Shown here in pieces: positions 2,968 to 27,148 of a DNA stretch of 64,000 bases; position 1 is the first letter of the stretch, and each line of letters starts with the position of its first letter. Below the pieces are notes generated by a model. It did not search any database and was not told the DNA's origin. It saw nothing but the letters and a program-made list of their open reading frames with translations. Origin of the DNA: a virus (Duplodnaviria > Caudoviricetes); IMG/VR virus record IMGVR_UViG_2974666281_000001, positions 1 through 64,000 of that record. One strand, 5' to 3'. A program made the translations under genes and the position numbers.

Positions 2968-4806
2968 TTAGCTCATCCAGGTCTTACGAAGTTCTGGATT
3001 ATCACCTAATAGCATTTCAAAAAGTTCTTTCCAGTTATCAGGCAGCTTAACAACATCGTAAACGGGTTCCATGATAACACGTTTGTATTCTTCACGTTTC
3101 AATGAACCGAGACCTTTGATATAACGAATATCGTAGCCCTTGAGACGTTCCTTGGCCTTTTCATATTCAGCCAAATCATACAACCATTCTTCTTTCTTGC
3201 CTTTAGTAGCAATGATTACAGGGGTCTTAACGAAACGAATACGTCCTTGTTCGAACAACTCAGGCCATTGAGTAAAGAAGGCCAGCAGTGAAGGATAAAT
3301 TGAACCTGTTCCATCGACATCAGCATCAGTCATAATACCAATATTACGATAGTTCATTGAATCAGCCTTTTCACCAATGGTCAATCCGGTGATTGCACAG
3401 ATATCAAATGCTTCTTTGTTCTTAAGAATATCAGCTGTAGACATACCCCAGGTGTTCATGAACTTACCACGTAATGGATAACCACCATGTAGTTCTCGGT
3501 CGCGAACTTCAATCAGATAGCCAATTGCCGAGTCACCTTCTGTTAAGAACAATGTTGTGTCTAATTTATCATCACCATATTTGTTAGGCTTGATGTGTTT
3601 GGCAACTTTGGCTTTTTGAGCCTTCTTAGCAGCTTTAGTTTCAGCAGCCTTTTCAGCAGCAATTTTACGAGCTAATGCTGCTTCAATAATAGGCATCAAT
3701 ACTGCTTCAGATTTCAAAATCTGTTGAGCAATCTTTTTAGTGTCTAATTGAATATGAGAGCGAATTTCGCCAAACGGAGAAGTCAATCGTTCTTTAGTCT
3801 GAGAATCGAAACGCATGTTCTTCATACCACGAACAAACATCACAAAAGTCAGACATTCTTTAACTCTGGCCTTAGTGACTTCAATTTTATGCTTTCGCTT
3901 GATTGCTGGCAGAAGTTCTTCGCAGATGTCATCCATCACACAATCAATATGGTGACCACCATTCTTAGTATGAATGTTATTCACATAAGTCAGATGACGG
4001 AAGCCATCTGGTGAACGACCAATAGCTATTGAACAATTATCAGCGTCAGCAATAACAGCTTCTTCGTCAAATTGTTTAGCAAACTTCTTGAAGTTACCTT
4101 GTACTTTTTTACCGTTGAACTTAAACTCAATATCTGGATAAACTACAGCCAGAGTTTGAAGCCGATCAAGAATAATATCAAGATATTCTTGGCTGAGTTC
4201 GTTAGTTTCGAAATGACTAAAGTCAGGAATAAACGAAACTAATGTACCTGTTTTAGCAGTTACATGTTCTTTATTTTTAGCTGGTTTTGTATCCCAACTA
4301 ATATTCTCTGCACCATTTGAGCAACGAACAACGATTTCATTTTTACCATCGCAAGTTGCGCCAGCGAAAGTAACAGAGAAGATATTAGTCAAAGAAGAAC
4401 CAACACCGTTCATACCGCCGGTTTCACGGTCTGCATCATCACCGAAGTTACCACCTGCTTTAGGACGAGTCCATGCAGCAACTGGTCCAGGGATTTCAGT
4501 TCCTTCAGGAGTCATAACAGGAGTTTGTGGAATACCACGGCCGTTATCTTCAACAATAACTTTATTACCACGAACTTCTACAGAAATTTTATTTGCATGA
4601 GCAAATCTAGTACGAATAGCTTCATCCACAGAGTTATCAATGATTTCATCAATCAGTTTAATAACGCCTGGGACGTATTTGACTTTTTCAAATTTACCGA
4701 ACAAAAAACGTTCGTGTTCTTCGTTAGAAGAAGAACCAATGTACATCCCGCTACGTTTGATAATGTGTTCACGGTCAGACAGAATTTTAATTTCGTTCTT
4801 AATCAT
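2968..4806 (-). CDS. 39: type II topoisomerase large subunit, uninterrupted gp39+gp60 fusion
   Basis: EIIDNSVDE, DNGRGIP, GGMNGVG (GHKL); TEGDSA, PLRGK, MTDADVDG (Toprim); YIKGLGSL. Confidence 0.97.
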   Translation of the reverse strand: MIKNEIKILSDREHIIKRSGMYIGSSSNEEHERFLFGKFEKVKYVPGVIKLIDEIIDNSVDEAIRTRFAHANKISVEVRGNKVIVEDNGRGIPQTPVMTPEGTEIPGPVAAWTRPKAGGNFGDDADRETGGMNGVGSSLTNIFSVTFAGATCDGKNEIVVRCSNGAENISWDTKPAKNKEHVTAKTGTLVSFIPDFSHFETNELSQEYLDIILDRLQTLAVVYPDIEFKFNGKKVQGNFKKFAKQFDEEAVIADADNCSIAIGRSPDGFRHLTYVNNIHTKNGGHHIDCVMDDICEELLPAIKRKHKIEVTKARVKECLTFVMFVRGMKNMRFDSQTKERLTSPFGEIRSHIQLDTKKIAQQILKSEAVLMPIIEAALARKIAAEKAAETKAAKKAQKAKVAKHIKPNKYGDDKLDTTLFLTEGDSAIGYLIEVRDRELHGGYPLRGKFMNTWGMSTADILKNKEAFDICAITGLTIGEKADSMNYRNIGIMTDADVDGTGSIYPSLLAFFTQWPELFEQGRIRFVKTPVIIATKGKKEEWLYDLAEYEKAKERLKGYDIRYIKGLGSLKREEYKRVIMEPVYDVVKLPDNWKELFEMLLGDNPELRKTWMS

Positions 4807-7116: not shown

Positions 7117-7773
7117 TTAAGAAGTTTGTACATAATACCACTTATATCCATAAGCAGATTTACCATTTTTAAGAGCTTTAGAAATGTTAGAACTGTTCTT
7201 AAGCCCCATGTGTTTAGCAGCATCAAACATACTATCGAATATTTCTTCCGCAGTGTCTGAAATTCTTTTTACTTTTCTATCGATAAATTTAGGGTGGGTC
7301 TTCCCTGAATTAGTTAAGGCTATTTTAGCTTTGACTTCGTCTGACCTAGCTTTACCTCTTAGAGAGTTTTTCTCGCTTAAAGCATACTTACGTATCAAGT
7401 CTTTTGTTTCATCAGAAACAATTTTGCCTTTATGACATTTAGACATGGAATTTTTAAATTCTGGTGTATGTACATGCCCGTAGAAGCCGCCACCCCCACC
7501 GCCTAAAGCATTATTATAGGTATTTCTATCTAGAACTATATCTTCGGTAATTAGAAGTCTTTCCGCATCCATTGCTTCTTCTCTAGAAGAGTGATGTGAA
7601 AGGATTTCTTTTTTGAAATTATCTTTACCATATTTCTTTTTAGCAAGTTCAAACGACTTACCAGACCCTAAATAGCCATCTGACAAGTCGTTAGTAGAAT
7701 GAACCCCATAATAAATCTTACCATTACATAAGTTGGTAGTCTTGTACGTATAATGATAAGATTTTTCTTTCAT
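7117..7773 (-). mobile_element. free-standing GIY-YIG (Seg-type) homing endonuclease with NUMOD3-like repeats
   Basis: YTYKTTN..NGKIYYGVHST..DGYLGSG; HTPEFK, SDETK and SDEVKAKI repeats; C-terminal HTH-like segment. Confidence 0.9.
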
Positions 7774-8453
7774 CGCGATTTAGGAAGAGATAACGGATCG
7801 GCGTTACTTTCATCAGGGACTTCATCAAGTCCTAATGCATACCTCTGAGCATACTTGAGCATTAAGATGTCTTTAGCACAGTCATGAATAGAATCGTGCA
7901 TAACGAAACCATTTAACGTACCTGCTGGCAACGGGGTGGTAGATAGACCACGGACCATAGAGTAACATTCGATTGCTGTGCGGATATCGCGTTGATTCCA
8001 GAACTTACATGGTTCAGCAGTGAAGGTATCGATTTCTTCTTCAGGAACACCCTGTACACGTTGGATTTCACGAATATGGTCTGTAAAGATTGGGAAGTCA
8101 AACGACATGCCACGACACCAACCTTGAGAATTCCAAGCATCAATTCCTTGAGCCTTGAGATACATCAGGGCTTCTGTGATACCATCGACGATAGTCATAT
8201 CATGCTCTGTAGGAGCTAAGTTCAGGCGCGCTTCTGCGGACTGCTCTTTCCACCATTTGATGGTACCTTTAGAGAAGACACGATGTCCTTTCTGAGATGC
8301 TAGATTGAACTTAACTCGTTTACCACGAGCAACGAGTTCATCAAAGCTTTCTACCACAGTAGGGTCTGCATTAAAAGCAATTAACGCAAGGTCAATCACT
8401 GCTGCATTAGATGTAGAGCCAAAAGTCTCATAGTCAATAACGAAATCAATCAT
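7770..8453 (-). CDS. dexA: DexA exonuclease A
   Basis: DFVIDYET, RGMSFDFP, QRDIRT, HDSIHDCAKD. Confidence 0.95.
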   Translation of the reverse strand: MIDFVIDYETFGSTSNAAVIDLALIAFNADPTVVESFDELVARGKRVKFNLASQKGHRVFSKGTIKWWKEQSAEARLNLAPTEHDMTIVDGITEALMYLKAQGIDAWNSQGWCRGMSFDFPIFTDHIREIQRVQGVPEEEIDTFTAEPCKFWNQRDIRTAIECYSMVRGLSTTPLPAGTLNGFVMHDSIHDCAKDILMLKYAQRYALGLDEVPDESNADPLSLPKSR

Positions 8454-8679
8454 CTGTTGCCACCTTAAATTGTAGCACTAAATTAGCTACATGGTCACTG
8501 ATATAAAAGTCAGGTGCAAAACCTGTGAACCAGATAATTGCATCAGCTTTCGCTTTAATAGCTTCGAGTTCTTCAATAAGTTCCCAGCCTATCAATAAGG
8601 CTGGGTGCTCTGCAGAATCTAGCTGGATTTTAATAGACTTAATAAGATCGTCTAAATGTTCTTCGGTCATTCCGTACAT
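8446..8679 (-). CDS. hypothetical protein (dexA.2-like)
   Basis: ORF between dda and dexA. Confidence 0.6.
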   Translation of the reverse strand: MYGMTEEHLDDLIKSIKIQLDSAEHPALLIGWELIEELEAIKAKADAIIWFTGFAPDFYISDHVANLVLQFKVATDD

Positions 8680-8686
8680 ATTTCAC

Positions 8687-10012
8687 CTATACAAAATAAA
8701 CATCATGTCGAGCTCGAGTGCTGGAAACATAAGCTAACTGTTTAGCTAAGTCAATGTCTGCCAACGTGATGCACGGGGTATAAATGAACGCGTTGTCTAC
8801 GCTTATACCCTGTGATTTATGAATCGTGCTACAAGGAAGAGCTTTAACTTTCAAGAACGTTCGTTTGGCGTCCCAGAAATCAGCCCAATGTGGACGTCTT
8901 CCTGCTGATTTTAACTCACGATACGATGTAGCAACTTTAGCCAAGAACATATCGAATTTCTGCTTTTCATTATCATCAGCAAGGACTTTAATTGTTTCAC
9001 GTTGATAGTCATCATCTTCATCGACGGTTTCGACTTCAAGGTGCCAATACGAAATCATTTGCTTAACTGAAACGTCTCGGGCTTTCAGGAAAGTAGAAGT
9101 CAGTTTGCAATCAAGAATGCGAACCATCTGTCCGTTGTTAAAGATGATTTCATTGAACTTCTTGCCGTCGAATTCTAGAGACTTCATATACGGCTCTTGC
9201 ATAACTAACACTTCACCAACAATAAACGGACTTTCTGTTTCGTATAGTTTACGACGAATAATACCATTCAACTTGTCAACTGATTTGTTGGTATACGCAA
9301 GCATACGGGTTTCGAATAAGTCTTCAGGTGATTTGACTACATCGAAATACTTCATCATGTATTGTTGAAGTGGTTTATCACCATTGAAGCCGTGGAACCC
9401 ATGCCCATCTTCGATACATTCACGGAACCACCCACCGTTACGAATTTCAGTAGCGACTTTAATGATAGGTCCGTTAGAACGTTTCACTTCAGTCAATGTT
9501 ACTTGTTTGAAGCGATGGTCGCTAAAGAAAGGCGACTTAGATGGTAAACTATCACCTGGTGAAACTGGACGAAGCTGCTCTTCATCACCTATACCAATGA
9601 CAGTACAATGCGATGGGATAGTGTTCATCAAGATTTTGAATAAAGCACCATCATACATTGACCCTTCATCGCAAAGAAGAACTCGACACTTAGCTAGGTC
9701 AGGCATTTCTTTCTGTTCGAAGATACTTTCTGCTTCATATGTCGTTGGCGAGATTTTCAAGATGCTATGAATAGTAGCGGCTTGATGTCCTGACAATTTA
9801 GACAACACTTTCTTAGCCTGGTGAGTAGGCGCAGCCAGCATAATGCCTAACTCCCCGTTACGGACCAGATGTTCTAAGATAAACTTAGTCATCGTAGTTT
9901 TACCTGTGCCTGCAGGTCCGTTAATCATAACATGGTGTTTCTTAGTTCGGATAGCTTCGATTACAATTTCAAATGCTTCCTTTTGTCCTACTGTTAAGTC
10001 GTCAAATTTCAT
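8687..10012 (-). CDS. dda: Dda SF1 helicase
   Basis: GPAGTGKT, CDEGSM, TIHKSQG, YVSSTRAR. Confidence 0.97.
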   Translation of the reverse strand: MKFDDLTVGQKEAFEIVIEAIRTKKHHVMINGPAGTGKTTMTKFILEHLVRNGELGIMLAAPTHQAKKVLSKLSGHQAATIHSILKISPTTYEAESIFEQKEMPDLAKCRVLLCDEGSMYDGALFKILMNTIPSHCTVIGIGDEEQLRPVSPGDSLPSKSPFFSDHRFKQVTLTEVKRSNGPIIKVATEIRNGGWFRECIEDGHGFHGFNGDKPLQQYMMKYFDVVKSPEDLFETRMLAYTNKSVDKLNGIIRRKLYETESPFIVGEVLVMQEPYMKSLEFDGKKFNEIIFNNGQMVRILDCKLTSTFLKARDVSVKQMISYWHLEVETVDEDDDYQRETIKVLADDNEKQKFDMFLAKVATSYRELKSAGRRPHWADFWDAKRTFLKVKALPCSTIHKSQGISVDNAFIYTPCITLADIDLAKQLAYVSSTRARHDVYFV

Positions 10013-12887: not shown

Positions 12888-13409
12888 TCAATAACCTTGG
12901 TCTTGTCGAGCGAAGTTTTCCGCATTTTTTAGGTAATACAGTTTGAAGATTTCTTCAGCGTCCATACCTAAACCTGCGAACATATTCAGAACAAAATGCA
13001 GAATATCTATCATTTCGAATTTGATTTCGAGTTGGTCTTCGTGGGACATTTCAGAAATTGGTTTACTTTGGGCTTCCGAATAACGAGATTTCCATTTTTT
13101 CCAAACAGCTGAAGCATCTTTATCGCCGCGATGCATTTCGCCTAATGAAGTAATAAGTTCACGGAATTCGTCATCGATGCAGTCTTTTTGTTCACGAAGC
13201 CAGGCAACAACTTCACCTGCGGTTTTCAGCTTATCTGGATGATAACAAATTTCTGGTTTGTCATTAGCAAGACGAATCTGCAATGACTTCTGCATATCGA
13301 TCATTGTCTGTAGTGGGTCACCACCTACAGAACGAACAATACCTGCATAACGAGCTTCAGCTACATCAGAACCAGAAATCAATTGAGAACATTCATTAAA
13401 GTGAGCCAT
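12888..13409 (-). CDS. 56: dCTPase/dUTPase gp56
   Basis: MAHFNECSQL, DPLQ.M.DMQ..LQ, DDEFREL, FE.IDILHF, KNAENFARQD.GY. Confidence 0.95.
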   Translation of the reverse strand: MAHFNECSQLISGSDVAEARYAGIVRSVGGDPLQTMIDMQKSLQIRLANDKPEICYHPDKLKTAGEVVAWLREQKDCIDDEFRELITSLGEMHRGDKDASAVWKKWKSRYSEAQSKPISEMSHEDQLEIKFEMIDILHFVLNMFAGLGMDAEEIFKLYYLKNAENFARQDQGY

Positions 13410-19591: not shown

Positions 19592-20140
19592 TTATCGAGC
19601 CCACTTAATTATGCTTGAAATAACTGCTTGATGTTCGCCAGCGTTAACACCACGGATGTTATTTCTACCGTCGTGATTCAAAATTTGATGAACTGGAAGG
19701 TCTTGATTATCAGCGAATTCTTCAAATAAAGAGATAACCTTATTGAAACCCTCTGGACTAAGAGAAATCAAATCATCTTCAAAGTCAGAAGTCATTTCAT
19801 TACGAGTCAGAATCAAAGTATAAACTTTATGGTTGTCAACCAGCCGATTGAAATCAACTTCAAACCGGTCTAGTTCTTTAAGCAACTCACCACGAATCAT
19901 ACCGTAAACCCAATTACTAATATATCCACGGTCTAGCAGATAGATTTTCTTAGGGTCAAGATATTCAAGCATTGTTTCGAAACAAGCTACTTCATTACGA
20001 CTTTTGATATCGAATCGACCATCATCAGTGCGTTTTGGGAAGTCAATGAGTTCATAACGGTCTGAGATTTCGCAGATATCACGAATCAATGATGTTTTAC
20101 CTGCGTTATCAGGTCCGTCTACATAAATTATTTTAGCCAC
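19592..20140 (-). CDS. thymidylate-kinase-like dNMP kinase (probably for modified dCMP)
   Basis: DGPDNAGKT P-loop, FP and LLDRG motifs. Confidence 0.85.
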   Translation of the reverse strand: MAKIIYVDGPDNAGKTSLIRDICEISDRYELIDFPKRTDDGRFDIKSRNEVACFETMLEYLDPKKIYLLDRGYISNWVYGMIRGELLKELDRFEVDFNRLVDNHKVYTLILTRNEMTSDFEDDLISLSPEGFNKVISLFEEFADNQDLPVHQILNHDGRNNIRGVNAGEHQAVISSIIKWAR

Positions 20141-21039
20141 AAATCACCTTCGATAATGACGTCTTCACGTTTAGGGATATTGTAAGGAGAATGAATATTG
20201 CATCTAAAGTAGATGAACTCTGCTAATCCAGGATGAAATACCTTTTCAGGATTTTCATGATACAGGATAATTGGAGTAGCCTTTAAGACACGATAATATT
20301 CTTTCTTACTCAGTTTGATAAGGTGTATTTTATCATAATTATATTCAGCAGCAACAAACGTGTCGTTCGGGTCTGTGATGTACAAGTCAATATCTAGATT
20401 CTTGCAAGTATTAACAACCTTTTTAAACTTATAACATTTATCACTGATTCTGAACGGATGGAATACACCCTTGAACTTGATTGGGTCCGTATTGCGAGAG
20501 AACGTCAGGATAACGTCAGGATTGATTACTCGCTGTGAGACTATGATCTTATCTTCATTAGCCCCATGAGCCACCAGAATGTCTTTCTGACACTCGTTCA
20601 GTACAAAAGTGCGAAGACTTTGGTTCACTGATTCAACATCTTTATCAATGAACTCATCAATATAATAACGTGGAACTTCTGGGTCTTTAGTGATATTGAA
20701 GTTGTAAATTACTTCATTTTTACCAGGATAACCTGTGATATCGGTTACAAGATGAGCACAATCAAAGTAATCCATCAATGAGTCGATAACGAACCAGTTC
20801 TCTTCCCAGAAATGTTTACGTGTTTCGTACGCGTTATCTTTATACCAGACAGGACAAAACATTACTTCAGGAAACAGTTCTCTCAACTCTGCTTCGTCAT
20901 CATTATTCTTTGGAATGCAAATGACATCACCGGGACTAGCCCGGTGTAATTGGAGTTGAAAGTTACCGTCTTTAAGAATAGCGTAATTACCAGTTTCGTA
21001 AGAACGCATTGAAAAGATAGGAACAATCAATTTAGCCAT
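20128..21039 (-). CDS. candidate DNA arabinosyltransferase
   Basis: sits at the beta-gt position of a sugar-nucleotide cluster; no similarity to T4 BGT; function inferred from context. Confidence 0.6.
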   Translation of the reverse strand: MAKLIVPIFSMRSYETGNYAILKDGNFQLQLHRASPGDVICIPKNNDDEAELRELFPEVMFCPVWYKDNAYETRKHFWEENWFVIDSLMDYFDCAHLVTDITGYPGKNEVIYNFNITKDPEVPRYYIDEFIDKDVESVNQSLRTFVLNECQKDILVAHGANEDKIIVSQRVINPDVILTFSRNTDPIKFKGVFHPFRISDKCYKFKKVVNTCKNLDIDLYITDPNDTFVAAEYNYDKIHLIKLSKKEYYRVLKATPIILYHENPEKVFHPGLAEFIYFRCNIHSPYNIPKREDVIIEGDLWLK

Positions 21040-21737
21040 TATTTTAAGAACCCTTTAACATAATCAAAGTCACGCTCAAAGACGTGGGCTGACACCATAG
21101 AATGAGTGTATGTACCTACTTTAACACCACATTCTTCAGCAATTAGGTTCATTAACTTCCATTGCAAATAGAAGTCCAGCTGCATAACAACGGCACAGTT
21201 CTGAGAACGCATATGACAATGTGTATAAAGACGACCATCACGAATGTAATAAGTCACAGAGTCAGTACATGGGTATTCTAGGGTCTCATCACTGTCAAGC
21301 AGTGCTTGGTCGCTTGATTCGAGAATCTGGAACACAACACGTCGCGAGTTAGGCTTCTCTTTAAGTTCTTTGAGAAGGGTTGGTAACTGGGCAACAATAC
21401 GAGGTCCATAAAAAGTGTTGAAGTTCGCAGGCAATGCGTCACTTTTTGGTTTTGAAATAAATTTAGCAACATTAGGATATTCCTTAAATGCTTCTACCGC
21501 GTCAGTGCCACCAGAAATCATGAACTTCCAGAATGCTTCGGCATAATCGTAATCAATACGATTGATACGTTCGTCTTGGAAGATAGCAGATTCTGGTTCG
21601 AATACTTCAATTACCGCAGAGCCAATTTCATGACAATGACCAATACGTGATTCTACAACAAATTCAGGTGACTTCAAGATGAGCTCATTCATCTCTTTAA
21701 ATGCTTCTTCAAACGTCCACGCTTTAACTGCAATCAT
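21039..21737 (-). CDS. thymidylate-synthase-fold dCMP-modifying enzyme (gp42-like, probable dCMP hydroxylase component)
   Basis: SRR, YPC catalytic Cys, MRSQN......LD, SAHVFERD. Confidence 0.85.
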   Translation of the reverse strand: MIAVKAWTFEEAFKEMNELILKSPEFVVESRIGHCHEIGSAVIEVFEPESAIFQDERINRIDYDYAEAFWKFMISGGTDAVEAFKEYPNVAKFISKPKSDALPANFNTFYGPRIVAQLPTLLKELKEKPNSRRVVFQILESSDQALLDSDETLEYPCTDSVTYYIRDGRLYTHCHMRSQNCAVVMQLDFYLQWKLMNLIAEECGVKVGTYTHSMVSAHVFERDFDYVKGFLK

Positions 21738-22078
21738 AATACCTCTTGTCGTTTTTTACTTTCATTAAAAATAAATTGATAGATTGATTTTAACTCATTT
21801 GGAACTGCAGCGAGTTTAAATGCTTCGACTTCAAGGTTCTCAATAGGAATATTATGTTTCTTTTTCAGAGAGCCAATCATATCAGTAACTTTAAATCGAC
21901 GTTCTAACAACTTATAGATTTCATAGTCGATATCTTCGACTTCAGAACGCATTGTGTCAAGAAGACGAGAAGGACTTGGCTTGACATTGAATGGGTTATA
22001 AGTTGCCGGGTCCTCGCCCGGCTGAATACGACGTGATTTGATAACTAGTTCGTTCATAGTGTGATTAATACGTCTCAT
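21734..22078 (-). CDS. AroQ-type chorismate mutase
   Basis: LDTMRSEVEDIDYEIYKLLERR...IGSLK...PIENLEVE...IFNESKKRQ matches the CM_2 pattern. Confidence 0.8.
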   Translation of the reverse strand: MRRINHTMNELVIKSRRIQPGEDPATYNPFNVKPSPSRLLDTMRSEVEDIDYEIYKLLERRFKVTDMIGSLKKKHNIPIENLEVEAFKLAAVPNELKSIYQFIFNESKKRQEVL

Positions 22079-23244
22079 TCTGGGTACCTCGTTGCGTCGT
22101 CTGCATTATCTGTGATTGATACAATCTGAATAGAATTCAGTGGCATGTCATTCTTAGATAGCTGACGTTTATAATAACGTTCGCAATAGGTACAAGTTGA
22201 ACCACATACTTCATTTGCACAATCAAAATCAGGATGTTTGAACCAACGTTTTTTCAAGAACCCATCAAGTAATGAAGTCTCGATATTAACCGTATGTTGG
22301 TAGTTAGCATCTGATTCATCGTTATAAATGGTTTCCAGTGGCTTCCAGAGCTCAAGGAGATTACCTTCAAATTTCTCTGAAGAATAAGCTTCCAGAACTT
22401 TCATGATGTATTCTGTTGAGCCTGTACGTCCTGACACTTTGAACTGAGTGATACCAATATCACGATACAGTTTTAAATCTTGTGGACGTACAAAACGTGT
22501 ACGGAGCCAGTTGAATGGGTCTGTGTCTCGGGCTTTGATACAGTGTTGCATCGGGTAACCATCCAATGACTGTGCATCTTCTGGTGTAGTGTCGGTACTA
22601 TGGAAAATATAGCAAGAGTCACGATAACTACAATGAGTGGTATAGCCTTTACCAGCATTAGAACAGAATTCATTGACCAGAATTTCAAAGATGATTCCAT
22701 TATCGTTACAGAATTTAGCAGCTTGCTTTAAGAATGAAACACTACGATTCTTATGAATACCACAGCAGACTTTCTTGATTTTGTATTGGTCGTGAAGATA
22801 CTTAATCTGTGTTACCGCATCTACGTGCAGGATAGTTGAAATTTCGAATTCAATTTCAGTATTCACTTCACGAACGATTTGCATTACAATTGGGTTTGCT
22901 ACTGTAATACGATAAACACCAATAGACCACAGATACTGAACATATTCTTGAATGGCTTTCTTTTTCCACTCGTCTAATTCACGCTTGGTGCCTGGGTTAA
23001 TACTGTTGAAGGTATAGTTGAAGCAAATACCTAATTCATTACAACGAGCGACGTATTTTTCCAGCTCTTCGTCTTTAACATCAGGAAGACGGAAATCAGG
23101 ACGCGCAGCTACAAACGCCATAGCTCGAGTAGAGCCATAGACTTCGTTGATTAATGAATCAGGGTTTTTAGCATTCAGCTCAACAATTTTATCAAGAAGA
23201 GCCAAATCAAAATTCGTTCCTACCTTAAAAGTAGATTTATGCAT
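22075..23244 (-). CDS. peptidase U32 family Fe-S hydroxylase
   Basis: IST...V, EILVNEFC..C..C..C cluster, FVRPQDL, FKVSGR. Confidence 0.85.
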   Translation of the reverse strand: MHKSTFKVGTNFDLALLDKIVELNAKNPDSLINEVYGSTRAMAFVAARPDFRLPDVKDEELEKYVARCNELGICFNYTFNSINPGTKRELDEWKKKAIQEYVQYLWSIGVYRITVANPIVMQIVREVNTEIEFEISTILHVDAVTQIKYLHDQYKIKKVCCGIHKNRSVSFLKQAAKFCNDNGIIFEILVNEFCSNAGKGYTTHCSYRDSCYIFHSTDTTPEDAQSLDGYPMQHCIKARDTDPFNWLRTRFVRPQDLKLYRDIGITQFKVSGRTGSTEYIMKVLEAYSSEKFEGNLLELWKPLETIYNDESDANYQHTVNIETSLLDGFLKKRWFKHPDFDCANEVCGSTCTYCERYYKRQLSKNDMPLNSIQIVSITDNADDATRYPE

Positions 23245-23245
23245 T

Positions 23246-23884
23246 TTATAACCTTACGTAATTGGGCCATTTTGGCGAATTAAGCCGAGTATAAAAAGCA
23301 CTTCGACTTAATCCTATAGCCTCATAAGCTAATTTCATCGTGGAATATTCCACACCATTTACTTCAACAGGTGATTTTCTCGAAGCTTTTTCGCCAGTAC
23401 AAGTCTTTCGACTTTCAGACATTTTATTTCGCGATGTGTCTGACCATACCTTTCCGATATTTGGTCCTGGCTTTCCTGTAATGGCTTTAGATAATTTAGC
23501 TCTTGTTTCAGGAGACAAACTTACACCGTATCGAGGATTATCTTTTCCGGTGAATCGTCCTTTACGGGACTTTGACATTTTATCACGAGATTCTTTGCTA
23601 TACGCAAATGCTGTATTTCCACCTAATTTCAAGTTCAATACATCAGGCCTTTTTAACCAGTCTTCATTAACCAATTTGGCTTCATAATCGTAAGCGTCTT
23701 GTTCTATGTCGAATGTGGCCAAAATCTCTTTTATGATTTTAGGGTTCTTGGACTTAATATAATCTTTAAGTTTTACTCCAGAACCCATATAATCATCTTC
23801 TATATTAGAAGTACTATGCTTACCAATATAGAATCTAACATCTTCTTCAGACGTGCACGTTATTTTGTACACGCAATGAATCAT
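23246..23884 (-). mobile_element. free-standing GIY-YIG homing endonuclease with NUMOD3 repeats
   Basis: CVYKIT..FYIGKHST..DDYMGSG; SKESRDKMS, SPETRAKLS and SDTSRNKMS repeats. Confidence 0.9.
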
Positions 23885-24246
23885 AAGTTTGGTTTGTACG
23901 ATTTCTTTGATTTGAATTCACCTTTATTCATAAGGTTTTTGAATTCGTCAGGACGCATAGCTTTGTCGTCGATAATCCAATCATACACAGGTTTATGTGT
24001 CAGCAGATTATGATACTTCAAGCCAATACGTTTCAAGTTCTCAATAAGAGAAGGAACAATTTCTGAAGTAATACGACCAGGACCTACTGACTTCATACCG
24101 CGAGCAGTATAAAGCGTAATCTCATGACCTTCATCGTACAGCTTGTTAATCATGGACACCATTACGGTGTCCGGCTTAAAGTTCACATAATCACGGTCAT
24201 TGTTCCAGAACGTAATTGTATCGTCGATGTCAAACGTTAACTTCAT
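23881..24246 (-). CDS. HAD-family sugar-phosphate phosphatase
   Basis: FDIDDT, LYTARG, KP..D.IIDDKA. Confidence 0.85.
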   Translation of the reverse strand: MKLTFDIDDTITFWNNDRDYVNFKPDTVMVSMINKLYDEGHEITLYTARGMKSVGPGRITSEIVPSLIENLKRIGLKYHNLLTHKPVYDWIIDDKAMRPDEFKNLMNKGEFKSKKSYKPNL

Positions 24247-25924
24247 TGATTCGTTCCCACTGATGAGTGATATCGCCACCTATAGGGCGATAGGAGACAC
24301 CTGTTTCTTTATCAGTCAGTACCCATTTACCAGGGTTCTTCGTGATTAACGTCGCCGTAATAGGCTCACTAATGTCCATTGAAACAGAGCCATCTTGGAG
24401 TAGACGGCCCATTTTACGTAATTGTTTAGTAAGCAGCATCATGCCATGGTAATATGCCGAAACTGCTTTCAACGGATTGTTCTTGAAGTAACCACCTAAT
24501 GCAATCCAGATAATAGCAACTGCAAGATGATGATAGTCGTTGAACAAATCACATTTCTCGTACTTATGAACCAATGGCTGAATATTAACAAAACAATGCC
24601 CTTCATCAATAATAAGACCACCCCAAGCATGATCGGAATTAAACTTATCATAACCTGAAATGGCGTAAAGGACTTTTGCTTCATCATACAACTGTGGACC
24701 AAAGATTTTAGTCTCACCAAAATAACCACGTGGATCAATGAATTTAACTACACCATCGTATTGAATCATGGTATTACTAAAGTTTGGGTCACCATGAATA
24801 ACACAATAACTACGCCCTTGGGTCTCGTGATGGTATTTAATCAAATGGGCTAATGCTTGTTTAAGCATCGGTTTCAGATGACCAAGTTTAACATGATTAA
24901 CATGGGTGATTTTACCAAACGATTCAATTAAGCCTTTAATTGAATCACAACGGTCGATTACTTTTGTGTAGAATTCTTTAGTGAAATCTAGTTCAATTTC
25001 TTCTTCAGTCGCATAAACGGAATGGCCAAAATTCAAAGCATCAAGAATTTCTTCGATTTTATCAAACTGTTTAAATGCTGGAAGCCCATACAGCCATTCA
25101 AATGCCGGAAGTCCTTTAATCCGTTCCATGATGAATGATTCACCATTGATACCTGAAATTTTAGGTATTGACTGAGATTTGACATGACGATACCATTCAA
25201 GTTCATCACGTTGAAGCTTTTTGCCTTGCTCGGTTAAAGCGAACTTTTCGACATAATCTTCTGTGATTTCTACAGCATTAAAACTACGGTTCAGTTCACG
25301 TTCTTTATGAGCTTCATGGAGTTTATCCATATCACCAAGGTCGATGATATTCATTAGCTCCGACTGTTTGAACGATTTGCCGTACAAAAAGTCTACAAAA
25401 TCTTGCCCTTGGCATTGTTCATTAATTTCTTCAAGCGTATCACCCATATAGAATTCCCAGTCTAAGAACTGATAAATTCCTACGACGTTGCCGCCAGTAC
25501 TTCCAACATTAGAAATATACTGTCCATCAAAGTTATAACGACACTGATTGCCTTTAGTGTAAATGGTATTTTGTTCCCAACACCATGAACCAAAGTCGGG
25601 AATAATGTCACACCAGTTAACGATAACGTTGTGACCTTCTAACATATGGTTCATTGTAGCTAATGCATAAGCAGAACCGTATGATTCATCTACGGTATGG
25701 ACAGTGATATTCAGGCCTTCTTGCTGAGCATAAGCACGAACCATTTCAGCGAACTTTGAATGCACGACTACAATAATTTCATCTGCACCAAGGTCTGCAT
25801 AGATGTCATGCAGATTTTTGAGAATAGTGTGTTGCTTATAGTTAACTAACACTTTAGGTATATGGTGCGTAATTGGATATAAACGAGTTGCCAACCCAGC
25901 TCCAAGAATAACTGCCTTTTTCAT
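24230..25924 (-). CDS. sugar-1-phosphate nucleotidyltransferase fused to an APH/choline-kinase-like kinase
   Basis: ILGAGLATRL.P.T..IPK at the N-terminus; IHGDPNFSN..FIDPRG in the C-terminal half. Confidence 0.9.
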   Translation of the reverse strand: MKKAVILGAGLATRLYPITHHIPKVLVNYKQHTILKNLHDIYADLGADEIIVVVHSKFAEMVRAYAQQEGLNITVHTVDESYGSAYALATMNHMLEGHNVIVNWCDIIPDFGSWCWEQNTIYTKGNQCRYNFDGQYISNVGSTGGNVVGIYQFLDWEFYMGDTLEEINEQCQGQDFVDFLYGKSFKQSELMNIIDLGDMDKLHEAHKERELNRSFNAVEITEDYVEKFALTEQGKKLQRDELEWYRHVKSQSIPKISGINGESFIMERIKGLPAFEWLYGLPAFKQFDKIEEILDALNFGHSVYATEEEIELDFTKEFYTKVIDRCDSIKGLIESFGKITHVNHVKLGHLKPMLKQALAHLIKYHHETQGRSYCVIHGDPNFSNTMIQYDGVVKFIDPRGYFGETKIFGPQLYDEAKVLYAISGYDKFNSDHAWGGLIIDEGHCFVNIQPLVHKYEKCDLFNDYHHLAVAIIWIALGGYFKNNPLKAVSAYYHGMMLLTKQLRKMGRLLQDGSVSMDISEPITATLITKNPGKWVLTDKETGVSYRPIGGDITHQWERINEVNV

Positions 25925-25974: not shown

Positions 25975-26106
25975 CTGGAACTTGGCTTGTAGCCAGAGCA
26001 TGACCCAAGCAACGATAAGAGTTGGAATCATTACTGGAGTCATGATGCTCCAGTAAATAGTTGCACCGAAGAATAGCAATAATAAAAATGTGTCTAGATA
26101 TTTCAT
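25963..26106 (-). CDS. 47-aa membrane protein, not in the ORF track
   Basis: MKYLDTFLLLLFFGATIYWSIMTPVMIPTLIVAWVMLWLQAKFQCFN; ATGA overlap with the isomerase stop. Confidence 0.7.
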   Translation of the reverse strand: MKYLDTFLLLLFFGATIYWSIMTPVMIPTLIVAWVMLWLQAKFQCFN

Positions 26107-26732
26107 TGAGCACCACGCAATTGTTCGCCTAATGCACCACCTGGGTGAAAGCGTAGGAAGTCGTTAGGAGTAAACCCACGTTCGGCTGAAAGGTTAATTG
26201 CAAAGGTATCAATCAGAGCCAAGAGCAACGTTGTGGACATCGTAGGTGCCAACTTATGCTCATCAATCTCAACCGCCTTGCCTGTACAGAAATTGTAGTC
26301 AAACATGCTTAAAACGCCAGTATTCAAATCTGGATTGCAATGAAGTAGAATCTGTTCTACACCCGGACGAATTTGACGAAGGTGTTTGACGAGTCTAAGC
26401 ATCTCTTCAGTCTTACCTGAACGGCTGATGTGAATCAGAACATCGTTAGGGCCAATGAAGCCTGCGTCACCATGAGAATAATGCCCAGTGTTCAGATACA
26501 GGCTAGGAATACCCAATGAGGCCATTGTTTCTGAAGCCTTAGTGGCGATGTTAGCGTTTTTACCTACGCCTGTTATGATTATACGACTCTCATAATTGGA
26601 TAGTCCTGGGCGTCGCAAGCATTGCAGGATTCGAAGATAATGAGAGCTTCCATTGTTGATAATAGAAGACAACTTATCTAAGGCTTGTGCTTGCAAGACA
26701 AGAGCTGTTTTAGCACGGTCGATTGAAGTCAT
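26103..26732 (-). CDS. arabinose-5-phosphate isomerase (KdsD/GutQ SIS domain, no CBS domain)
   Basis: ITGVGKN, HGDAG, ISRSGKTEE, LAPT.ST, F.RFHPGGALG. Confidence 0.92.
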   Translation of the reverse strand: MTSIDRAKTALVLQAQALDKLSSIINNGSSHYLRILQCLRRPGLSNYESRIIITGVGKNANIATKASETMASLGIPSLYLNTGHYSHGDAGFIGPNDVLIHISRSGKTEEMLRLVKHLRQIRPGVEQILLHCNPDLNTGVLSMFDYNFCTGKAVEIDEHKLAPTMSTTLLLALIDTFAINLSAERGFTPNDFLRFHPGGALGEQLRGAQ

Positions 26733-27148
26733 TTGATATTTTCTTCCACACATTGGTTAATAATTGAATAGTACTTATCACCAACTTTTTGATATTTGGC
26801 TTTGTACTTTTCAGCTGTCTTGAAGTCGCCAGATTCAATAGAAGAATAATACTTACTTTCTACTTTAGCTAATTCAAGGTCTAAGAATTGCTGACACTTA
26901 CGAGCAATGGCTGACCGTTTTTCGGCTTTAATAGTACGTTCTAAAGCTTCACGTTCGCCAGGAAATTCTACACGTTCTACTTTCATGGTAGCATATTTGT
27001 CACAATTACCACCACACTGGTTTGAGACCCTCTGATAGACTAGTCCAGTCCCACCTTTATAAACTAAGTTACCGACGTAAGGATGATTCATCCCAGCACA
27101 ACCAGTAAGTCCAAAAGTTAAAGCAATGATAGCAAGTTTCATTTTCAT
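26729..27148 (-). CDS. lipoprotein
   Basis: lipobox LTGC. Confidence 0.7.
   Translation of the reverse strand: MKMKLAIIALTFGLTGCAGMNHPYVGNLVYKGGTGLVYQRVSNQCGGNCDKYATMKVERVEFPGEREALERTIKAEKRSAIARKCQQFLDLELAKVESKYYSSIESGDFKTAEKYKAKYQKVGDKYYSIINQCVEENIK

Follow-up and report, generated by a model that had tools for sequence, protein, structure and literature searches.

The 64,000-nt stretch of viral DNA analyzed here (referred to as the window) contains an open reading frame at 21039-21737 on the minus strand. Its 232-aa product matches the Pfam family Thymidylat_synt (PF00303, E 4.1e-15) and also the thymidylate synthase (TS) families of PHROG, which raises the question of which reaction this protein catalyzes. 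A preliminary description, made from the sequence alone, had proposed a gp42-like enzyme that is still specific for dCMP, apparently no longer uses folate and hydroxylates the base at C5 rather than hydroxymethylating it. Our own analysis indicates with high confidence that the product of the gene is a dCMP 5-hydroxylase (5hodCMP synthase) that depends on a flavin and O2, belongs to the AfhB/RB69 gp48 family and has the TS fold. This assignment is based on orthology, the fold, the D169N signature, the replacement of folate-side residues, the gene cluster around the locus and the modified DNA of phage LC53. The window is DNA of a T4-like phage: over 4 kb around the hydroxylase gene, it shares 99.0% identity with Serratia phage vB_SspM_LC53 (Straboviridae, Winklervirus) and 98% with Erwinia phage Virsaitis27. 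For LC53, 5-arabinose-hydroxy-cytosine has been reported in the phage DNA (cited also in PMC13326640).

The window protein aligns without gaps to RB69 gp48 (81% identity) and is 72% identical to DLP3 gp80. Its best sequence matches in the PDB are 9iqu and 9iqc (E 4e-124; about 80% identity to AfhB), which are entitled 'phage HY126 dCMP hydroxylase-AfhB with substrate dCMP' and 'Monooxygenase dependent on riboflavin with dCMP and FAD', respectively. An AlphaFold2 model of the window protein (mean pLDDT 85.5) superimposed on these two entries with Z 31.6-32.6 and an rmsd of 1.2-1.6 A (for 9iqc, Z 32.6 and 1.6 A over 232 residues), and the next structural matches were MilA (Z 23.8) and thymidylate synthases (Z about 21). 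The key mechanistic work on HY126 AfhB (PDB 9iqc, 9iqu, 9ir2) is reportedly that of He et al. in Nat Chem Biol, 2026. When RB69 gp48 or DLP3 gp80 is combined with a dNMP kinase in E. coli, 5-hydroxy-dC enters the DNA, and its oxygen derives from 18O2; both are yellow enzymes that release a co-purified, FMN-like flavin (Lee et al., NAR 2026, PMC13326640). The sources name the flavin differently, as FMN-like for RB69 gp48, as FAD in 9iqc and as 'riboflavin' in the title of the latter entry. [quoted passage not shown] By analogy with them, the window protein is expected to bind a flavin and to form 5-hydroxy-dCMP in an O2-dependent manner.

Orthology, fold, residue signature and gene context were established for the window protein itself. 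AfhB, RB69 gp48 and DLP3 gp80 (72-81% identity) have the same fold, length and signature (C146, N177D, D169N, L143E and a residue other than Gly at position 173, in E. coli ThyA numbering), and their gene neighbourhood and downstream arabinosylation genes are alike. The window protein is orthologous to AfhB and RB69 gp48 and comes from the Winklervirus (LC53-like) branch; we found no difference of substance.

The signature was derived from an L-INS-i alignment of 129 sequences, which comprised the window protein, RB69 gp48, DLP3 gp80, RL38J1 gp216, T4 gp42, E. coli ThyA and 123 representatives at 50% identity taken from a full HMMER scan. According to this alignment, the window protein keeps the catalytic nucleophile C146 of ThyA as C157 (codon at 21267-21269, minus strand, in YPCT) together with the nucleotide-binding residues R21, R126, R127, R166, S167, H207 and Y94. 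The changed positions are N177 (D188), D169 (N180), G173 (V184), E58 (F69), W80 (V90), L143 (E154) and Y209 (F220); E58, W80 and G173 are folate-side residues. In addition, about 30 C-terminal residues of ThyA have no counterpart in the window protein. The motif that holds R166 and S167 as well as N180, V184 and D188 reads RSQNCAVVMQLD (21174-21209, minus strand), compared to RSCDVFLGLPFN in ThyA and RSNDVVFGFRND in T4 gp42. The preliminary description had given all three strings correctly, and its reading of them agrees with the alignment: the catalytic PC is kept, Asp stands at the N177 position, the folate-contacting Asp is replaced by Asn and the conserved Gly by Val. The Asn that it singled out is D169N, the exchange proposed as a predictive signature of 5hodCMP synthases (PMC13326640).

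These changes are not peculiar to the window copy. C157 is invariant both in the 27 close relatives and in the 57 Asn-type representatives, and N180, V184 and D188 are invariant in the close relatives. Among 253 relatives with a recognizable motif, a count that includes close relatives, 184 combine Asn, a residue other than Gly and Asp (median length 235 aa) and 47 combine Asp, Gly and Asp (median 309 aa); the corresponding numbers for the representatives at 50% identity are 57 and 45. Asn combined with Gly occurs in none of the 253 motif-bearing relatives. The signature changes co-vary across the family and are not due to chance. A segment around PKSDALPANFNTFYG (residues about 90-110; 21408-21470) is near-invariant in the family and has the lowest confidence of the model (pLDDT about 56), and this segment could form a mobile loop that covers the cofactor site.

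The position of the folate-activating Glu (E58 in ThyA, E60 in T4 gp42) depends on the register of the alignment, and pairwise HMMER, hhalign and L-INS-i placed this region in three different registers. The one obtained by hhalign profile alignment to T4 gp42 has low confidence in the N-terminal region, and against E. coli ThyA the same program aligned the C-terminal half alone. In the pairwise HMMER alignment to MilA, AEAFW falls opposite AEALW, by which the Glu would be kept as E67. We rejected this candidate: position 67 varies among the 27 close relatives (E in 19, A in 3, K in 2, D in 2 and N in 1), F69 is invariant in them, and the large alignment, which runs gapless through the conserved G-x-T-D, places this Phe in the Glu column (codon at 21531..21533, minus strand). 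In that column, Phe is found in 43 of the 57 Asn-type representatives and Glu in 44 of the 45 representatives of the Asp/Gly type. Together, the gapless alignment, the Phe in the Glu column and the contrast between a variable E67 and an invariant F69 argue that the catalytic Glu is gone from the window protein, a placement taken from the large alignment and not from a residue-level structure superposition. The loss of this Glu had already been suggested from a comparison by eye of YAEAFWKF (21522-21545, minus strand) with its counterpart YIQRELEW in T4 gp42, and the register used there is that of the 129-sequence alignment.

A thymidylate synthase (EC 2.1.1.45), as most records annotate the gene and as Pfam and PHROG name it, has practically no chance of being the correct identity, since the protein has the dCMP-selecting Asp in place of the dUMP-selecting Asn177, scores far under every NCBIfam TS equivalog cut-off (e.g. 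66.6 vs 174.55 bits) and is encoded in the same genome as a canonical full-length TS (144296-145150, E 3.9e-101), so that the hydroxylase gene is not needed for dTMP. E. coli ThyA and the window protein have in common the fold (Z about 21), the phosphate-binding Arg/Ser set and the Cys nucleophile, but ThyA has a folate site and a C-terminal stretch that are missing from the window protein.

Several records label orthologues 'dCMP hydroxymethylase', and an ordinary folate-dependent enzyme of the T4 gp42 type would agree with the location of the gene between uvsX and gene 43, which is the genome position of T4 gene 42, and with the Cys and the N177D change common to both proteins. T4 gp42 (PDB 1b5e) also has the TS fold and an acidic residue at L143. 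However, its identity to the window protein is just 27%, and the residues of folate chemistry are replaced: where gp42 has E60, D169, G173 and a Trp equivalent to W80, the window protein has Phe, Asn, Val and Val, so that it lacks the Glu as well as the Asp169 and Gly173 of the R-S-x-D-x-x-x-G motif. Moreover, the product of the orthologues is 5-hydroxy-dC and not hydroxymethyl-dC (PMC13326640), and it is arabinosyl-hydroxy-cytosine that occurs in LC53 DNA. A gp42-type hydroxymethylase is, in our view, extremely improbable. T4 gp42 forms a hydroxymethyl group from methylene-tetrahydrofolate and water, whereas the window enzyme, judged by its orthologues, would introduce a hydroxyl group from O2 via a flavin. 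The nearest solved relative outside the hydroxylase clade is the CMP hydroxymethylase MilA (PDB 5b6d, 5jnh; E 8e-13, Z 23.8, 24-25% identity). MilA differs from the window protein in being folate-dependent and acting on CMP, and relatives of the MilA (Asp/Gly) type have retained the Glu and have a greater median length (309 aa). The initial proposal of a dCMP-specific C5 hydroxylase without folate chemistry is therefore supported, the evidence being RB69 gp48, DLP3 gp80 and AfhB, yet it was incomplete, since it named neither the flavin as replacement cofactor nor O2 as oxygen source.

For the hydroxylase, we propose the following reaction path. The substrate dCMP would be supplied by the phage dCTPase, a gp56-like protein (12888..13409, minus strand) that is annotated in the 99%-related LC53 and has a weak match to Pfam dUTPase_2 here. 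Asp188 would select cytosine, and Cys157 would add to C6 and make C5 nucleophilic, as in thymidylate synthase. Instead of attacking a folate-derived methylene, C5 would then receive its oxygen from a flavin-oxygen species. Presumably, this species is a C4a-hydroperoxyflavin that arises when reduced flavin reacts with O2, and the flavin would sit at the pterin (folate) site of TS. Elimination of the Cys would free 5-hydroxy-dCMP, kinases would convert it to the triphosphate, and the polymerase would incorporate it in place of dC. Finally, the neighbouring transferase would add arabinose from UDP-arabinose made by the products of adjacent genes. Of these steps, we infer the covalent Cys addition, the hydroperoxyflavin intermediate and the position of the flavin where folate was formerly bound, on the grounds that the TS machinery is conserved.

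The genes next to the hydroxylase would provide functions for the later steps of such a path. The hydroxylase gene lies within a run of start-stop overlapping genes on the minus strand, with uvsX on one side and the DNA polymerase gene on the other. In order, the run encodes a U32-family protein, a chorismate mutase, the hydroxylase, a 303-aa transferase and a thymidylate-kinase-like kinase. The first of these (22075..23244) is a divergent member of the peptidase U32 family and probably an iron-sulfur protein (PF01136, E 1.4e-11; phrog_5757). The stop codon of its gene overlaps the start of the AroQ-type chorismate mutase gene (21734..22078; Pfam CM_2, E 1.7e-11), the stop of which overlaps the start of the hydroxylase gene, the junction being ATGA in both cases; the U32 and chorismate mutase genes are translationally coupled to that of the hydroxylase. 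The hydroxylase stop and the transferase start overlap by 1 nt (TAATG). The transferase (20128..21039) is a candidate DNA arabinosyltransferase, with 48% identity to DLP3 gp79 and a match to phrog_3891 (E 2e-149); DLP3 gp79 is listed as 'alpha-arabinosyltransferase 1' (PMC13326640, Table 1). Its open reading frame shares 13 nt with that of the kinase (19592..20140; phrog_761, E 1.1e-42), which occupies the position of RB69 gp45 and DLP3 gp78.

Beyond the U32 gene, on the DNA polymerase side and likewise on the minus strand, we found genes for a Seg-type homing endonuclease, a HAD-type sugar phosphatase (23881..24279; TIGR01689, E 2.6e-13; phrog_1238), a nucleotidyltransferase-kinase fusion for UDP-arabinose (24230..25924; PF00483, E 6.9e-11) and a SIS-domain arabinose-5-phosphate isomerase (26103..26753; PF01380, E 3e-10; annotated in LC53). 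The phosphatase is in the position of AfhF/RB69 gp51 and the fusion protein in that of AfhE/RB69 gp52:53 (PMC13326640). Nucleotide kinase, DNA glycosyltransferase and NDP-sugar genes are all present, and their order is as in RB69. The endonuclease gene (GIY-YIG/NUMOD3; 23246-23884), which is located between the U32 and the HAD phosphatase genes, splits the modification cluster relative to RB69.

None of the cluster genes scanned was recognized as coding for a flavin reductase, so that the host would have to supply the reduced flavin. A 91-kb metagenomic T4-like contig has a Flavodoxin_2 gene (PF02525, E 1.1e-19; 9497-9991, plus strand) whose end lies 10 nt ahead of the gene of an Asn-type TS homologue. 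This Flavodoxin_2 gene looks like a phage-encoded flavin reductase partner of the hydroxylase, and its adjacency agrees with an enzyme that uses a flavin and has a reductase at its side. Fusions of Asn-type relatives to a flavin reductase were not found among the longer relatives. The five longer Asn-type TS homologues listed carry a C-terminal histidine-phosphatase domain or, in one case, MazG.

We also analyzed the U32 protein and the chorismate mutase. The phage U32 protein has ten invariant Cys, three of which (C205, C211 and C235) are matched by Cys in UbiU, TrhP and RlhA; a comparison with the PDB gave no sequence match. The chorismate mutase keeps R11, R28, K39, E52, S84 and Q88 of the chorismate mutase domain of E. 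coli PheA, that is, six of the eight residues compared, which we take to be those of the active site as described for EcCM. Outside the window, the phage genome encodes a class I DAHP synthase (134307-135194, minus strand; PF00793, E 8.4e-81). DAHP synthase and chorismate mutase together would push the shikimate flux of the host towards prephenate.

These genes suggest another way of making the modified base, in which the TS-fold enzyme only activates C5 and the U32 iron-sulfur protein delivers the oxygen, independently of O2, from prephenate made by the chorismate mutase. The start-to-stop overlaps of the U32, chorismate mutase and hydroxylase genes and the phage-encoded DAHP synthase would agree with such a module, and so would RlhA, since U32 enzymes such as this one depend on prephenate and Fe-S clusters and form 5-hydroxycytidine in rRNA (PMC5727448). 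But RB69 gp48 and a dNMP kinase are sufficient in E. coli, with the oxygen coming from O2 (PMC13326640), the same base is made by DLP3 and RL38J1, neither of which has a gene for U32 or chorismate mutase, and AfhB crystallizes with its own flavin. It is very unlikely that the hydroxylase depends on prephenate in this manner; if the U32 protein hydroxylates at all, it more likely acts as a separate enzyme in parallel.

The flavin- and O2-dependent hydroxylase could then be one part of a two-route system. It would represent the aerobic half, and the chorismate mutase and the U32 protein would hydroxylate cytosine, either as dCMP or in DNA, without oxygen, with prephenate as the hydroxyl donor and the DAHP synthase feeding the pathway. 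Such an arrangement would have its counterpart in TrhO/TrhP and UbiIHF/UbiUV, two pairs of the hosts. We put this forward as a tentative proposal, to which we would give somewhat less than an even chance. It is favoured by the invariant Cys of the U32 protein, the retained chorismate mutase residues and the DAHP synthase, and also by the phage hosts and the deaminase-coupled U32 gene described below. In air, the hydroxylase works without U32 (PMC13326640). For RB69 gp50, which is a U32 protein, the same paper gives no designation other than 'sugar or heterocycle reductase'; it cites RNA pyrimidine hydroxylation pathways and makes no mention of prephenate, chorismate or U32. In the literature searched, which did not include He et al. 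2026, we found no paper linking the phage U32 protein or chorismate mutase to 5-hydroxycytosine.

By tblastn, homologues of the U32 protein were detected in 216 phage records and the window chorismate mutase in 41. In RB69, gp49 (4257-4496, minus strand) is at the position of the chorismate mutase, aligns poorly to chorismate mutase and is without the catalytic residues. Based on gp49 and on these numbers, the chorismate mutase is not universal in U32-bearing phages. The hosts listed for U32-bearing phages all belong to genera of the Enterobacterales, except for Shewanella (phage Thanatos); Acinetobacter and Rhizobium are not among them, although phages there carry the hydroxylase. The hosts of U32-bearing phages are thus facultative anaerobes. 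This host pattern is confounded by phage phylogeny. Near the more distant Asn-type TS genes of three metagenomic T4-like contigs, no U32 gene was found within 10 kb. At 7447-9086 (plus strand) of a 466-kb metagenomic phage contig, the gene of a U32 protein 54% identical to that of the window overlaps the stop codon of a dCMP deaminase gene. Genes for thymidylate kinase, UDG and the DNA pol III alpha subunit lie beside it, with no TS homologue within 8 kb.

The dCMP hydroxylase family is already known from publications of 2025-2026, also for the LC53-like phage lineage, and the window copy adds one further annotated orthologue. Its value for annotation lies in the fact that most database records mislabel the gene as thymidylate synthase or dCMP hydroxymethylase. 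A rule sharper than D169N alone could combine E58F, W80A/V, D169N, the change of G173 to V, T or I and the shorter length of the protein. The enzyme shows how the fold of a folate-dependent one-carbon transferase has been turned into a flavin monooxygenase. Hydroxylation of dCMP is the first step towards arabinosyl-5-hydroxycytosine DNA, and DNA modified in this way shields phages from restriction and CRISPR nucleases. A step that depends on O2 is awkward for a phage of facultative anaerobes, and how a phage of such hosts in gut or soil manages this essential step is a question for which the neighbouring genes of U32 and chorismate mutase are relevant. If the two-route system is true, phages of facultative anaerobes would be able to build 5-hydroxycytosine DNA in anoxic habitats.
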